From Escherichia virus TH32, in sequence record MT446405.1: 64,000 nucleotides of DNA. The stretch is one strand, 5' to 3'. The stretch's first letter is position 1; the number at the start of each line of letters is the position of its first letter. The notes beneath the pieces are model-generated. The model searched no databases. It was not told the origin of the DNA and saw only the letters and a list, made by a program, of their open reading frames with translations. The position numbers and the translations under genes are program-made. Of the stretch, positions 10,780 to 28,118 are shown piece after piece.

Positions 10780-11060
10780 CTTTATTAGTGTGATACGGAT
10801 GATACGGATAAAATGAGGCGTATTTTTATCCGTATCGGTGTATAAGCCGCGCTATCACTGGTGTGCTACGGATGATACGGATGATACGGATACTTTTCAT
10901 ATATAAGAGTTTATAAAAAAATAAAATTAAATTAGATATATAATTTTAAATTAATTTATTTGAATTCCTATATAGTACTGCGGCAACGCGTATCATCCGT
11001 ATCATCCGTAAGATTCTTTTGAAAACAACAACTTACTTGATACGGATGATACGTCATTAT
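10780..11060. repeat. Iteron cluster: 9-bp tandem GATACGGAT-type repeats in both orientations flanking an ~85-bp AT-rich spacer
   Basis: tgatacggatgatacggata (10791), ctacggatgatacggatgatacggatac (10866), AT-rich 10895-10975, cgtatcatccgtatcatccgtaagatt (10989), gatacggatgatacg (11039). Same motif family recurs at 26.97-27.3 kb. Confidence 0.7.
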
Positions 11061-11096
11061 ACGTATAAAACTCGCAGCAATCCTTTGCCGATGAAT

Positions 11097-23285: not shown

Positions 23286-23924
23286 TGCCGCGCAGGAGTG
23301 TACTGCAAATTTCCTGTGGGTACAAAATAGTACGGTACTGTCCAGGACTTTTTCTTTGAAAAGTTAGTGGACCAAATGTGTAGTATTTTGATTAGTGTAC
23401 CGCAAATTCCATCAAGTACCAAAACGCACCAAAAGACCCATGCCATAAAAACCACACGAACGCAATAATCAATCGACGTTACAGTTTCCAGCGTTACAAT
23501 TCGAAAGCGAATGATTCGACGCATAATAATATGAAGCATAATGATTCGAAAGCAAATGATTGCGTGTAGGATAATATCGGTGGGGATTATTCTAGATGCA
23601 TGTAATTTCGCATGCGTACTATTTTCGGACGAAGGGTCGGCATATTCCTCGTTTTAGTTCGGAACGAAGGGAAAGTTTTGCGCCTTTATAAAACAACGAC
23701 TTACGCGACCCGCCCTAACGGTCCGATATAGGTGTCTATATAAAACAAGGACTTACGCGATGTTCTCCATTTAACGTAATACCTGTTATGCGAACTAAGA
23801 CGCATCTCGAAGAAGATTATGCGACGACGAAGGGAAGGATAAAGGAGTTTTCGCGTAGGAGCGCATCGAGATAGGGACGAAGAAAAGCCGCGACTAAGCG
23901 CGGCCTATTAGTAACGGAAGGGTA

Positions 23925-24215
23925 TTATAAGGAGACGATTTTAAAATAAGTTACTTCGCCGCCGAGTTGCGGTACAGCGATATATTCGCCGCCGATTTCG
24001 GTAATCGTATAAACGAAGCCGTTAATCGTTACGCGATAGGATACGATGTCCTCGTCGCGATACTTGTAAAGGTCGAGGAAGTTGATCGGCTCATAAATAG
24101 ACTCGATAATCGCGTCTACGTTAGAGAGATAAACGCTCTCTAAGGTTTCGCCAAATACGTTAGAGTTTTCGGAAGTTTCGACGCGAGCGGAACGGATAGC
24201 GGCTAAAGTAATCAT
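23925..24215 (-). CDS. Island paralog family member 1 (96 aa), unknown function
   Basis: AGGAG RBS; paralogous to 24850..25134 and 24324..24626 (shared SEN..VY..NVD..IE, F.LY, NG(F/Y), EIG blocks); own promoter-leader cassette. Confidence 0.55.
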   Translation of the reverse strand: MITLAAIRSARVETSENSNVFGETLESVYLSNVDAIIESIYEPINFLDLYKYRDEDIVSYRVTINGFVYTITEIGGEYIAVPQLGGEVTYFKIVSL

Positions 24216-24283
24216 AATAATCTCCTAGTTGGTCGGGCGGGTAGCGACCTATTCGCTACCTCATCCCCTCTCGATATAAAACA

Positions 24284-24320
24284 TTATAGTCTTAGTGTAC
24301 GAAGAAGTAAAGCACTTTTT
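24284..24320 (-). promoter_or_regulatory. Conserved promoter of paralog 1 (CTTTACTTCTTCGTACACT ... TATAAT)
   Basis: Minus-sense GTGCTTTACTTCTTCGTACACTAAGACTATAAT followed by the ATATCGAG leader; the same element precedes the other two paralogs. Confidence 0.5.
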
Positions 24321-24323
24321 TCG

Positions 24324-24626
24324 TTATTTTGCGATAAAATATTTATAAGCTTTATCGCCTTCTACGTCGATATACTCGACGATAATTAATGCTTCGCCGC
24401 GAGGCGTAACCGTCTCGATAAGGGTAACGGCTTCGTCGTCGGTCTTCGCGAAGCGGATGGCGCTACGTTCGGCGTATTTAATTTCGTCGAAGGAAAGGCC
24501 GACGAAGGCGACGGCGCGCGCTTTAATAATGCTCGTTTCGAGTTCCGCGTTAACGGCAGCGATAAGAGAGCGAACGGTTAAGCGGTCTTCGTCGTAAGTA
24601 AGGATGGAAGAGATTAAAGTAGTCAT
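24324..24626 (-). CDS. Island paralog family member 2 (about 100 aa), unknown function
   Basis: Track ORF 24324..24683; start placed at the internal Met MTTLISS (RBS GGAG) which aligns with the paralog N-termini; conserved promoter upstream. Confidence 0.5.
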   Translation of the reverse strand: MTTLISSILTYDEDRLTVRSLIAAVNAELETSIIKARAVAFVGLSFDEIKYAERSAIRFAKTDDEAVTLIETVTPRGEALIIVEYIDVEGDKAYKYFIAK

Positions 24627-24683
24627 AATAAAGCTCCCGATGCTAGTAGAAGGAAGGGCCATCGCCCGTCTCGATATAAACAA

Positions 24684-24725
24684 GTATACGCGAGTGTACG
24701 AAGAAGTAAAGAAAAAGATAAAATA
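24684..24725 (-). promoter_or_regulatory. Conserved promoter of paralog 2
   Basis: Minus-sense CTTTACTTCTTCGTACACTcgcgTATACT then tgtttATATCGAGACGGG. Confidence 0.45.
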
Positions 24726-24747
24726 ATTTATCGCATTTTTATCGAAA

Positions 24748-24790
24748 AAGTGCTTTACTTTTTTCTACACTATATTATAATGTACTCATA
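24748..24790 (+). promoter_or_regulatory. Conserved promoter of paralog 3 (divergent from the paralog 2 promoter)
   Basis: GTGCTTTACTTTTTTCTACACTatatTATAAT then gtactcATATCGGGACGGG. Confidence 0.5.
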
Positions 24791-24849
24791 TCGGGACGGG
24801 ATGAGTTAACGAATAGGTCGTTAACGCCTCTCCCAACTAGGAGTTTAAA

Positions 24850-25134
24850 ATGGCTATTCTTAACGTTTCTTCTATCCGTAACGCCATCGTCGAGAACTAC
24901 GGCGTAAAACAAAAATTATCCGAAGTCTACGCCGCGAACGTAGACCAAACTATCGAAGAGGGTGGGGTAACGGTCGCCGAGGCTTTTAAACTTTACGCGG
25001 CGTTACCGGAATCGGACCGCGAAGCCTTCGAAGTAAACGTTAACGGATACTTCTTCGAAGCGGTCGAAATCGGTAATATTTTACTCGTTATGGGCGAAGA
25101 AGAATTTGAGACCTTCTCCCTCGTCGAAGCGTAA
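24850..25134 (+). CDS. Island paralog family member 3 (94 aa), unknown function
   Basis: AGGAG RBS; clear paralogy to 23925..24215; leader carries a conserved hairpin. Confidence 0.55.
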   Translation: MAILNVSSIRNAIVENYGVKQKLSEVYAANVDQTIEEGGVTVAEAFKLYAALPESDREAFEVNVNGYFFEAVEIGNILLVMGEEEFETFSLVEA

Positions 25135-25214
25135 GAGAGGATTTTTAGAGCGTCGTGCGCGGCGCTTTAATAAAATTCTTTCGCGCCTAGCGCCCTAACA
25201 AATAGGAGTTTATT

Positions 25215-25841
25215 ATGGTTAGCTTAAATCGCTTTTCTACTAGCGGCGACGTTATCGCAACTAAGACCGCCGACCTCGTTGCATTTTACAATGCAAATTC
25301 CGGTTCGAAGCCGATTAAAAAGTTCGCTGACCGCCGGACCGCCGAGACTCGCGTAATCGCGCTAATCGAGTCCTTAAACGCGCTCGATGAGCCGTCCAAC
25401 GAATCGCCCATCCCAGACGCGAAGCCGCGCGAGGAAGTGTCCAGCGATGTAAAAACGCACAAGGCGCGTGCGGTCGTTAAAAAGGCCGAGCCGACCCAGG
25501 AAGAACTCGACGCGATGAGCGATGAAGAGTATGAAGCCTTCGTTAAGAGCGGCTTAAACGATAGTGCAAATTGCGTAGTGCAAAATGGAACTCCTTCCCA
25601 TCGCCGTTCGAATAGCGAAGGTATTGCAAAAAGTTGGGATAATAAGGAAGTGGCGCAAAAGCGTCTTACCCGTAACGGCGTTATGGTCGAGGGTGTAGGC
25701 GAGTTCAAATCGGTCCGCGTAGCATTCGCCGCGCTGGGCTTACCGGATAGCAAACACATTCGCTTCCGTATGAAGCTTAAGGAAGCTGGGCGCTTGAACT
25801 TCGAGTTCGGCAACAAGTCCTACACATTCCAGATTATCTAA
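25215..25841 (+). CDS. Hypothetical protein (208 aa)
   Basis: AGGAG RBS; shares the CG-rich codon style of the island; contains two ATAGTGCAAA boxes read as D-S-A-N-C. Confidence 0.45.
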   Translation: MVSLNRFSTSGDVIATKTADLVAFYNANSGSKPIKKFADRRTAETRVIALIESLNALDEPSNESPIPDAKPREEVSSDVKTHKARAVVKKAEPTQEELDAMSDEEYEAFVKSGLNDSANCVVQNGTPSHRRSNSEGIAKSWDNKEVAQKRLTRNGVMVEGVGEFKSVRVAFAALGLPDSKHIRFRMKLKEAGRLNFEFGNKSYTFQII

Positions 25842-25891
25842 TCGAATGGCGGCCCTTCGGGGTCGCTTTTCATAGTGCAAATTGGTGGCTT

Positions 25892-26155
25892 ATGAATACG
25901 CTTATTCTCATCGCTACGTTGTCCATCGGAAGTGGTCGCACCTTATCCCTTTACGACCATAGTGCAAATTGCGCTTACCCTACGCGCGTTGCGGCAATAG
26001 TTAATAGTGCAAATCGAATGCTATTCGAAACTTGTTGGCGGGTCGATAACGAGAAAGGGCGCATCGTCTTAGGTTATAGTGCGAATCTGCTGGTGGAGTC
26101 GTTCGATTGGACGGTTGAAGGTCGTAAATTGTTACGTAAGGTGACTAAAAGATGA
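25892..26155 (+). CDS. Questionable ORF overlapping the ATAGTGCAAAT boxes
   Basis: 87-aa ORF whose frame reads the boxes as xSAN; no convincing RBS; may be non-coding. Confidence 0.25.
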   Translation: MNTLILIATLSIGSGRTLSLYDHSANCAYPTRVAAIVNSANRMLFETCWRVDNEKGRIVLGYSANLLVESFDWTVEGRKLLRKVTKR

Positions 26156-26269
26156 CTTATAATAATACACTTTCTAACGCGTTTATGGTTGTAACCTTCC
26201 CCGTCGTATTACCGATGGCCCTAGAAGTGGAGAAAATGTGTTCTAGGGCCGTTTTATAGTGCAAATTGG

Positions 26270-26758
26270 CTAGTGGCGGGAGAATTGCTCGCCTTCTTTG
26301 GCCGCCTCTCCGAAATCCTTGTAGAAATCGTCCATGGAACGGCCCATTTTACTATTGCCGTTTTCATCAATCATCGTGATGCCGTAGATGATATTCAGTT
26401 CACGAATAGCATTAAGTTTGGCTGACGCCGCGACTTCTGGATCACGCACAAGCTTGACCAAATTGTGAATTGCACCTTTTACGCTCCACAAATCCTTGAG
26501 TGGCATCTCTTCCATACGCTTTTTGAAGCGCATTTTGTAGTATGGGTTGCGTTGCGCGCAAAGGATTCGCTGGCCAGTGTAGCTATCCGTTGCAACTTCC
26601 ATTCCAAATACTAGTGCAAAAGCTGCGCGCATGTCATGGCCCTGAATAACAAGGTCAATGAACTCATCGAATAAAGCCTGATTGTGCTCTGCAAATCGCG
26701 GGTCTTCAAAGTCTTCAGGCATCGCTACATAATCTTGACTCATAGTGCAAAATCCCAT
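26270..26758 (-). CDS. Hypothetical protein (162 aa)
   Basis: Minus-strand ORF with typical phage codon style; start region coincides with the ATAGTGCAAAT boxes, so the true start may be the second Met (MSQDY, at 26743). Confidence 0.45.
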   Translation of the reverse strand: MGFCTMSQDYVAMPEDFEDPRFAEHNQALFDEFIDLVIQGHDMRAAFALVFGMEVATDSYTGQRILCAQRNPYYKMRFKKRMEEMPLKDLWSVKGAIHNLVKLVRDPEVAASAKLNAIRELNIIYGITMIDENGNSKMGRSMDDFYKDFGEAAKEGEQFSRH

Positions 26759-26969
26759 AGTGCAAATTAATAGTGTGAATTATACAATGGATGGACATTA
26801 TATTCAAGTGCAGATTGATGTTCATTATGGCTATAAACGTACACAAATCACAGTGCTGAATGGATAACGGACCGTGGTGCGTGGTGTACTGTTTGATACG
26901 TATAAAAGAAATCCATCCCTTTTGCCGCTTGTTATGCAAATCAATGACTTAGCCGCTGCTGGCTGGTCG

Positions 26970-27300
26970 AAGCGTATCATGACGTATCATCCGTATTGCC
27001 GCAAGTCTTTGTTTTTACTTATATCTTACGGATAATACGTTAAATATATAAATTAACATAAGTATGAGGATGTAGAAAAAAATTAATTTAAATGATTTTA
27101 AAATGGAGTTAATTAATTTTTCAAATTATATATATAACGATGCCCAGTTTTATCCGTATCATCCGTAAGATTAATGTACAAGCCAGGCGCGGCAAGGGCT
27201 GTACACTGATACGGATAAAAAACCATGACGTATCATGACGTAAGGGTGTACCAATTTGGAAAGGATGAATCCAGGAACGGCGCGGCCTGTAGCCATGATA
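26970..27300. repeat. Second iteron/AT-rich region, homologous to 10780..11060
   Basis: cgtatcatgacgtatcatccgta (26975), AT-rich 27040-27140, ttatccgtatcatccgtaagatt (27149; near-identical to 10989-11015), gatacggataaaaa (27208), catgacgtatcatgacgta (27226). Confidence 0.7.
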
Positions 27301-27581
27301 CGCTTAATTTTTAACCGTATTTTAGGCGTATCAAATGTGTTCAAACACCAAGTTTCACGACACTAAAATTTCAATCCATAGACAATTCCTAACAAACACC
27401 ACGGACTAATAGATACGCCCTATAAAATATATTTCTAAATATTTCCGCACAATCAATAAATAAAACACAACCTCATAATCATTCCATCGCAAAACACGAC
27501 CCAAACAACAAAAGGCCGCATAAAGCGACCCATTGCACACATTCCATTCTTCAAAACACGTAAACAGTGTTCGTTTATTCA

Positions 27582-28118
27582 CTATATCTTAGGCATTAAT
27601 CCCTTTTCAGTTCTCCTTTTTATTTCTTCTTTTATCATTTTATTGGTGACTTTATAGCCAATCCTCTCCAATTCCAGCAGCACTTCGTTTTGGTATTTTT
27701 TTATCTTCACAATATCGACTGTATCCCTCCAATAAGAAAATACCTTCTGAATTACTGCTTCATCCATTTTATATCTTGCTGTCGTCCTGTATTTCGATTT
27801 GAAGATATAATTGATTGCATCAGTCTTTAACCATTCGCTTCTCAACTCAGGGTGATCATCCCAAAGAGCTATGGCAAACTCTTGCGGGCTTTTACATCTT
27901 TTTCTAAGCTCCTTTATGTAATCAGTTATGCTGGTTTTGTCACAAAAACGTTTGCGGCAAACTTTGCATTCTTCCTTGAGTAACCATTCAGCCTTATTAC
28001 TTTGCGACGCTGATTCATTATCCCTTCTGTACCTGCCGCATATACTTATTCCTTCATTATCCAAGAAGTAATGCAAGTCTTTAGAATACTTAGCTTTACG
28101 CCAAAAGCCGCCCATCAA
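27582..28118 (-). CDS. Hypothetical Cys-rich protein (178 aa)
   Basis: Last gene of the minus-strand early cluster; several Cys pairs (CKVCRKRFC, RKRCKSP). Confidence 0.45.
   Translation of the reverse strand: MMGGFWRKAKYSKDLHYFLDNEGISICGRYRRDNESASQSNKAEWLLKEECKVCRKRFCDKTSITDYIKELRKRCKSPQEFAIALWDDHPELRSEWLKTDAINYIFKSKYRTTARYKMDEAVIQKVFSYWRDTVDIVKIKKYQNEVLLELERIGYKVTNKMIKEEIKRRTEKGLMPKI

Follow-up and report, generated by a model that had tools for sequence, protein, structure and literature searches.

The stretch of DNA analysed here, 64,000 nucleotides of Escherichia virus TH32 (MT446405.1; hereafter the window), covers 64 of the ~68 kb of the phage genome. Megablast of positions 24000-28000 returned 28 phage records with 91-96% identity, all belonging or close to the genus Wifcevirus, and the window itself comes from a Wifcevirus, a PB1-related myovirus of E. 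coli. The genus consists of E. coli and Shigella myoviruses (e.g., WFC, Mansfield and Bas98-101), which are distantly related to the PB1-like phages of Pseudomonas (Pbunavirus) and have a genome size of ~68 kb plus a direct terminal repeat of ~3.7 kb. Inside this repeat lie terS, the gene of the small terminase, and two genes encoding proteins of 208 and 87 amino acids (the 208-aa and 87-aa genes). The subject of this work is an array of 12 co-oriented ATAGTGCAAAT-like boxes that extends over and between these genes, all on the plus strand at 25561-26780 and none elsewhere in the 64 kb (Table 1).

Table 1 The boxes and the features surrounding them, with their positions in the window.
Feature	Position	Strand	Remarks
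Direct terminal repeat, 3673 bp	23432..27104		Mansfield PhageTerm; WFC record
Conserved element AATTTGCGGTACACTAATCAAAATAC	23383..23408	-	22-47 bp outside the right repeat boundary (23432)
208-aa gene, phrog_4730	25215..25841	+	Holds boxes 1-3; homologues in all relatives examined
Box 1, ATAGTGCAAAT	25561..25571	+	Inside the 208-aa gene; facultative; missing from RCIP0319, Eco4M-7 and Ro157lw
Box 2, GTAGTGCAAAA	25575..25585	+	Facultative
Box 3, GTATTGCAAAA	25621..25631	+	Weak variant
Box 4, ATAGTGCAAAT	25872..25882	+	Directly after a terminator hairpin, just 5' of the ribosome-binding site of the 87-aa gene
87-aa gene	25892..26155	+	Holds boxes 5-7; homologue Kyle gp002
Box 5, ATAGTGCAAAT	25959..25969	+	Within the 87-aa gene; codes HSAN
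Box 6, ATAGTGCAAAT	26004..26014	+	Codes NSAN; position in common with Kyle gp002
Box 7, ATAGTGCGAAT	26076..26086	+	True Chi 2 nt further on
Chi, GCTGGTGG	26089..26096	+	Conserved in 8 Wifcevirus genomes; active orientation for RecBCD from the left end
Box 8, ATAGTGCAAAT	26256..26266	+	Between the terS stop codon and a terminator hairpin; Chi-like GCTAGTGG next (26269-26276)
terS, small terminase, 157 aa	26270..26743	-	phmmer vs PDB 7UXE; phrog_4783; AF2 and Foldseek
Box 9, CTAGTGCAAAA	26611..26621	+	Inside terS; minus-strand codons F42-A43-L44
Box 10, ATAGTGCAAAA	26742..26752	+	Overlaps the terS ATG (26743)
Box 11, ATAGTGCAAAT	26757..26767	+	terS 5' leader
Box 12, ATAGTGTGAAT	26770..26780	+	ACACTA variant; starts 2 nt past the terS -10, covers the predicted transcription start
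terS promoter, TTGAAT-17-TATAAT	26779..26807	-	Sigma-70 type
Terminus module	26953..27243	-	GATGATACGGAT / ATCCGTATC iterons either side of a ~110-bp AT-rich core holding the left end

The first-pass annotation had reported at least eight same-orientation copies of an 11-bp motif within ~1.2 kb, and the array bears this out. A window-wide search for ATAGTGCAAAT at ≤1 mismatch gave 8 matches, all on the plus strand and all within 25561-26767; shuffled windows lead one to expect 1.88, and none of 100 shuffles reached 8. The 9-mer TAGTGCAAA has 9 exact copies in the window, every one of them within the array interval, and a degenerate core search added the boxes at 25622, 26077 and 26771, bringing the total to 12 on a single strand. 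A de novo repeat search independently recovered the same box family. The motif is therefore enriched and, within the 64 kb, confined to the array, so that the similar density by chance that would have spoken against its significance was not seen. TTGCACTA, the box read on the opposite strand, does not occur outside the array on either strand of the window. In terS-sense orientation, for which the minus strand of the window is read starting at the left physical end, the boxes have the core GCACTA and, in Wifcevirus, the consensus A(A/T)TTTGCACTAT; GCACTA is not significantly avoided outside the array (8 observed vs 12.5 expected). Successive boxes are spaced by 13, 15, 131, 355, 180, 72, 45, 87, 251, 46 and 14 bp and display no helical phasing (Rayleigh scan of 9-12 bp periods, P = 0.69 in the window and 0.50 in Pantoea phage Kyle, a relative described below). 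The spacing had been called irregular and unlike that of CRISPR; the irregularity stands, the range given for it (45-180 bp) does not, the measured one being 13-355 bp.

Several simple identities of the boxes were tried and rejected. A CRISPR-like or tandem repeat array would have a regular repeat-spacer period, which is not found here. An RNA-level motif does not fit either, as the boxes have no shared hairpin context on either strand and some lie upstream of the terS promoter; a search for structured RNA families in Rfam yielded no match at E ≤ 1. The box (ATAGTGCAAAT) is not Chi, the true Chi being a separate element. Host factor sites (the NtrC half-site TGCACTA, the GCAC element of the marbox, the T4 MotA box) were dropped, being half-site or partial matches with the wrong architecture.

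The genes overlapped by the boxes had been suspected of being artefacts of the repeat, a suspicion that fails for all three: terS encodes the small terminase, the 208-aa gene belongs to phrog_4730 and the 87-aa gene has a homologue in Kyle. The codon phase shared by most copies in these reading frames is accounted for by the box itself, because its TAG forbids one reading frame; four sense-strand copies read xSAN. The terS product (TerS) matches the TerS of Pseudomonas phage E217 (PDB code: 7UXE; phmmer E = 7e-34, residues 3-147), which is also the only significant Foldseek match of its AlphaFold (AF2) model (pLDDT 82.5). The three back-to-back copies that were noticed over the start of this minus-strand gene are there (26742-52, 26757-67 and 26770-80), with the correction that the true ATG is at 26743, as annotated in relatives; the start at 26758 given by the ORF finder is an ATG inside a box. 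These tandem boxes 10-12 span ~+1 to +31 of the terS transcript and reach the ATG. The terS promoter has near-consensus equivalents in Kyle, MyoSmar and locus L051. Boxes 4 and 8 are each located directly 3' of the terminator hairpins of plus-strand genes. In Bas99, terS is ~8.7 kb from the large terminase gene.

The array lies within the terminal repeat, 325-1544 bp from the left physical end. This end is at 27104, base 1 of both the WFC and the Mansfield (PhageTerm) records, which are independent of each other. The right repeat boundary is at 23432 according to PhageTerm for Mansfield vs 23351 according to the WFC record; the WFC boundary is 81 bp farther out, and Kyle sides with Mansfield. 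Just outside the boundary, the conserved element AATTTGCGGTACACTAATCAAAATAC resembles a box with a 5-bp insert and includes the box-like ACACTAAT; it is found at equal distance from the boundary in Mansfield and Kyle (consensus of the two: AATTTsmsrGTACACTAATCArAAT), and a second, partial copy is present at 23297-23312 on the minus strand. The weaker GCAAATT motif seen earlier at 23.3-23.4 kb is real and is part of a 17-bp repeat (23297-23312, 23383-23408) by the right repeat boundary. At the left end, the iterons of the terminus module form a repeat family distinct from the boxes. The module (~290 bp) has a diverged and inverted second copy at 10793-11063, in the gap 5' of the gene for the head maturation protease, with no boxes nearby, and the two-copy layout is seen in Kyle too (alignment score 196-222 vs a null maximum of 59). 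The two copies could be origins or late regulatory regions; only one of them serves as terminus.

Across 8 Wifcevirus genomes, each has 8-12 boxes and never one on the opposite strand. In the nine boxes at 25872-26780 only 4 of 99 alignment columns are variable vs 208 of 1580 outside (Fisher P = 0.005); by this comparison, purifying selection acts on the DNA of the core boxes. Box 4 is invariant across the 8 genomes, and boxes 1 and 2, situated in a variable linker of the 208-aa gene, are missing from 3 genomes. The TerS of Kyle is 41-43% identical to those of Wifcevirus, its terminal repeat is 3603 bp long and its terS is at 357-839; it has 14 GCACTA boxes on the terS-sense strand, 477-1478 bp from the left end, and in the form T[TC]GCACTA none elsewhere on either strand of its 73 kb. 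About two box positions are common to Kyle and Wifcevirus, one in the codons of terS helix 2 (within 6 bp) and one in the xNSAN codons of the 87-aa gene; what selection maintains is therefore how many boxes there are, on which strand and in which region, and not where exactly each one lies. With five additional contigs (see below) the array is known from seven lineages, in which the GCACTA core is kept on the terS-sense strand while TerS identity falls to ~41%. The polarity is strict throughout (~80 boxes across the seven lineages, 0-1 opposite-strand copies in the five additional contigs), the box zone runs from -110 to ~+1180 of the terS start, up to six boxes are inside the terS coding sequence, and in five lineages a box follows the terS -10 by 2 nt (TATAAT-N2-[G/A]CACTAT).

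The occurrence of the array goes along with a variant of TerS. A profile search yielded 38 diverse TerS homologues. In an alignment of 33 homologues, one subclade (the window, Kyle, P0135, P0131, P0130, P0132, P0129 and P0142, with P0129 left out of the array count) has the motif [Q/K/R]-R-N-P-Y-Y-K, where the remaining aligned sequences have E-x (D-A in one). In the window the two variant residues, Q64 and R65, terminate the helix 56-65, which is the third of the N-terminal helical bundle in the confident AF2 model. The array was predicted beforehand from the TerS sequence alone, and 5/5 additional subclade contigs indeed carry boxes, 7-13 co-oriented copies of GCACTA at ~-110 to +955 of the terS start. 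Taken together, the array accompanies [Q/K/R]-R in helix 3 in 7/7 lineages and is found in 0/12 sampled lineages without the variant, with the qualification that the seven may be one clade. The 12 lineages outside the subclade in which no GCACTA array is present are L050 and 11 others, among them Pbunavirus, MyoSmar, XcP1 and PCSE1. The nearest outgroup, P0134 (E-K at the helix-3 site; locus L050), has no GCACTA boxes and carries 8 copies of CAACTAAC just upstream of terS, at 490-730 (P < 0.01 vs shuffles); on this sequence comparison, a related but different box goes with a different TerS helix.

When 2.4-kb zones near terS were searched for comparable repeat arrays across the TerS lineages, significance was reached in Wifcevirus and Kyle only. 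In the 600-bp zone upstream of terS, other small repeat sets were found in L050, PCSE1, L036 and one Pbunavirus; that of Salmonella phage PCSE1 (L010) consists of eight same-strand copies of AATATCG at 386-715 (P < 0.01 vs shuffles). A scan of viral contigs for two close boxes detected dispersed arrays in Wifcevirus only; its other matches were 9-, 12- or 15-bp tandem repeats or phi29-like phages of 13.9 kb, and were set aside as unrelated. The latter, L068 and ~15 similar contigs of 13.8-13.9 kb (IMG/VR sample 3300045988), are phi29-like small podophages with a protein-primed polymerase and collar proteins, and have GTGGACGAT(T/A)GTGCAAA repeats ≤~130 bp from both ends, in inverted terminal repeats; the likeness of these repeats to the box appears coincidental. 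From the comparisons above, the boxes are a clade-specific, strand-polar cis element. The first-pass annotation had offered either binding sites of a regulator or a phage-specific promoter element. A protein-recognition array under DNA-level selection agrees with the data, the phage-specific promoter element does not, and the position of the array in the terminal repeat, by the physical end and around terS, changes what its most likely function is.

We propose, tentatively and with rather less than full conviction, that the boxes are polar recognition sites of TerS, or of the terminase, by which the repeat is designated for packaging and for the formation of ends, and through which terS is autoregulated. 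TerS oligomers would load onto the 8-14 co-oriented boxes in and around terS, 0.33-1.55 kb from the left end of the 3.7-kb repeat; the loaded boxes would tag the concatemer junction as viral DNA and set the polarity of large terminase action. The large terminase would then cut in the AT-rich terminus module 325 bp off and at the right repeat boundary with its box-like element. By means of the boxes over the terS transcription start and leader, TerS would throttle its own near-consensus, host-type promoter. We infer that TerS is the candidate binder, that the binding serves packaging and that terS is autoregulated. Recognition boxes of the small terminase are favoured because of their tie to terS, the mapped end nearby, the more basic helix 3, and the acidic counterpart of this helix in E217, a TerS without appreciable DNA binding. 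As with pac- or cosB-type sites, the array is near a physical genome end (27104) and, in seven lineages, is linked to, and often inside, the small terminase gene. At the helix-3 site where the TerS of the window has Q-R, that of E217 has E-S, and the right repeat boundary bears a box-like element kept in Wifcevirus and Kyle. The TerS of E217 is a decamer encoded ~58 kb from TerL, and its overexpression harms the phage (PMC9611059); autoregulation would be useful because excess TerS is harmful in E217.

A number of observations weigh against this proposal. The sole TerS of the family that has been assayed, that of E217, bound DNA to no appreciable extent in vitro (PMC9611059). Common descent alone may explain why the TerS variant and the array go together: the seven lineages, which also have the 87-aa gene in common, appear to form one clade, so that the correlation may amount to a single evolutionary event. 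The irregular and unphased spacing of the boxes (13-355 bp) is a poor fit to DNA simply wrapped around one ring, and the iterons that flank the left cut site are of a different kind. MyoSmar, which has the same type of terminal repeat, is devoid of GCACTA boxes, therefore these are not required for this packaging mode in general, and Kyle has no good box at the terS promoter.

Cis sites located inside or adjoining the gene of the protein that binds them are a feature of the pac sites of P22 and SPP1 and of lambda cosB and Nu1. In lambda, cosB (the gpNu1 sites R3-R2-R1, between cosN and Nu1) comprises repeated short TerS-recognition elements in a place like that of the proposed TerS boxes, close to the genome end and to where the TerS gene begins; it is well established that this gene is the leftmost one and that the polarity of packaging comes from these elements. 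Lambda differs in having three sites and an IHF site in ~120 bp and cohesive ends, whereas here 8-14 candidate sites extend over ~1.2 kb, are mostly intragenic and belong to a 3.7-kb repeat. P22 gene 3 and SPP1/SF6 gene 1 (pacL/pacR) also have the recognition site in or next to their own small terminase gene, and SPP1 and P1 (pac hexamer repeats) have several short repeated boxes. P22, SPP1 and P1, however, package by headful, with imprecise ends and compact sites of 22-270 bp, while the window phage has fixed ends, long direct terminal repeats and an array 5-10 times longer. The best functional analogy is the packaging domain of adenovirus (A repeats, TTTG-N8-CG, ~200-400 bp from the left end), also made of redundant co-oriented short repeats near one end. 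It is the number of the A repeats that matters and not their exact position, and packaging is polar; adenovirus is nevertheless a eukaryotic virus with unrelated packaging proteins and no homology. Chi (GCTGGTGG), the signal read by RecBCD, resembles the boxes in being strand-polar, irregularly spaced, tolerated in genes and, in relatives, clustered in the same 2 kb; it differs in sequence, is host-defined and occurs genome-wide, whereas the boxes are specific for a phage clade and for ~1.2 kb. The closest protein for comparison, E217 TerS, is a homologue (E = 7e-34) whose gene is also far from the large terminase gene, and differs by E-S vs Q-R in helix 3 and by its lack of appreciable DNA binding (PMC9611059). 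Pbunavirus genomes differ in being reported as circularly permuted and in having no array.

As an alternative to terminase recognition, the boxes may be operators of a different phage regulator, for instance in an early-to-late switch that shuts the terS promoter and transcription across the left repeat and plays no role in packaging, which is unlikely but deserves to be kept in mind before the others. In line with operators, five lineages have boxes over the start of terS transcription, the tandem copies are 13-15 bp apart like cooperative operator sites, and the array is restricted to one early, host-promoter-driven region. Most boxes are, however, hundreds of bp from any promoter and within coding sequence, the other three early promoters of the repeat are without a box, as is, in any good form, that of terS in Kyle, and no candidate regulator was found, since the 208-aa neighbour is kept in box-less relatives and the 87-aa protein looks secreted. 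Somewhat more doubtful is a polar signal of the Chi kind, which a machine moving from or towards the left end would read on one strand. In a Chi-like version of this idea RecBCD or a recombination device would, together with the neighbouring Chi, make the repeat a protected, recombinogenic zone for concatemer formation; in a cosQ-like version the boxes would act as a brake on the translocating terminase motor and prime the precise cut at the left end of a long-repeat genome. A strict polarity, irregular spacing and free turnover of positions, genes included, are the pattern expected of the signal of a translocating enzyme, and in relatives co-oriented Chi clusters occupy the box zone. Kyle has 9 Chi (CCACCAGC) in the 1.7 kb of 255-1972 vs ~1 expected per strand per 73-kb genome; the left repeat zone has 6 in L047, 6 in L048, 5 in L051, 2 in L049 and 4 in MyoSmar, with none on the other strand there. 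Box and Chi form composite units, a 23-nt repeat in the window (26074-26096 and 26254-26276) and ATTTGCACTATCCACCAGC in L047 and L048, where it encodes the TerS tail DLHYPPA. The Chi sites, in reverse complement on the terS-sense strand, have the orientation that is active for RecBCD entering at the left end. The co-oriented clusters suggest that it is this end which RecBCD can reach, and that the repeat serves for recombination or protection. On the other hand, the box sequence is not Chi and has nothing in common with it, Chi clusters and boxes are independent of each other (only Chi in MyoSmar; boxes along with 1 or 0 Chi in Wifcevirus and L046), no known enzyme reads the box sequence, and the conserved box at the terS promoter is left unexplained.

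An improbable further alternative takes the boxes for replication origin iterons, to which a phage initiator or a primase-helicase would bind. Short octamer iterons are known from ori/crr of the satellite phage P4, and the boxes are similarly short direct repeats in a single orientation, with an AT-rich stretch ~230 bp off and a strong promoter adjacent. This AT-rich stretch, however, has its own iterons (GATGATACGGAT) and a box-free second copy (10793-11063), the primase genes are >9 kb off, helical phasing is missing, and across lineages the array tracks terS, coding sequence included, and not replication genes. Phage-specific promoters or transcription start elements are hardly credible. 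Some copies do read TATAGT or CATAGT, which is -10-like, and two copies come after terminators and before a gene; but the invariant GCAC part has no promoter counterpart, three copies crowd within 40 bp, copies are intragenic and antisense to terS, and three other early promoters have no box. As to whether the motif marks promoters elsewhere, a check suggested by the first-pass annotation, it is absent from the rest of the 64 of ~68 kb. Neither a phage RNA polymerase nor a sigma factor is annotated in Bas99, and the region already has ordinary sigma-70-type promoters.

The 208-aa gene is convergent with and adjoins terS in every lineage examined, the headful Pbunavirus included, and this conserved synteny suggests a link with terminase function. 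The C-terminus of its product (LGLPDSKHIRFRMKLK) is nearly invariant, also in box-less relatives, and its homologue search returned near-identical sequences only; no Pfam or PDB match was obtained, profile search included. The 208-aa protein was rejected as a box binder on the grounds of this C-terminus, almost invariant where there are no boxes, and of the missing Pfam/PDB match; its presumed likeness to NUMOD-type DNA-binding domains found no support. The 87-aa gene is limited to the box-bearing clade (Kyle gp002; neighbours in L046, L047, L049 and L051), and its product has a signal-peptide-like N-terminus and two conserved Cys. A Pfam hint to the MGMT DNA-binding domain (E = 0.097) is probably spurious because of this N-terminus and the conserved cysteines, and the protein was not retained as a binder. 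The repeat contains three further early promoters of the type TTTACT-16/17-TATAAT, all without a box, at 24754-24781 (+), 24311-24283 (-) and 24710-24683 (-). The segments 24204-24312 and 24615-24711 are a duplication ~400 bp apart that comprises the promoter and leader of two minus-strand repeat genes.

No description of the box motif in a phage context was found in the literature searched, nor in the works on Wifcevirus that were consulted. If the boxes are recognized by TerS as proposed, they would constitute a terminase signal made of many dispersed polar boxes over ~1.2 kb in a long-terminal-repeat phage. How phages with long direct terminal repeats recognize their own DNA and form exact ends is largely unknown, and for the PB1-like myoviruses, the Pbunavirus used in therapy among them, a TerS structure has been solved with no known DNA target and no DNA binding detected. 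With the array there is a concrete candidate for such a target, an 11-bp box whose core and copies are defined, and with Q64/R65 vs E/S in helix 3 a specific candidate determinant on the protein side. Bas98-101, in which both the box and the helix-3 determinant could be tested directly, can be propagated on engineered E. coli K-12 strains with a restored O16 O-antigen and without cryptic prophages. Confirmation would make packaging signals available for engineering and for transduction vectors, and would show a case in which a terminase has acquired sequence specificity.

Over the whole window, the most depleted 6-mers are GATC-containing hexamers and GC-rich palindromes (GGCGCC 0, GCCGGC 0 and AGCGCT 2 copies), a composition consistent with avoidance of restriction or Dam-related sites.

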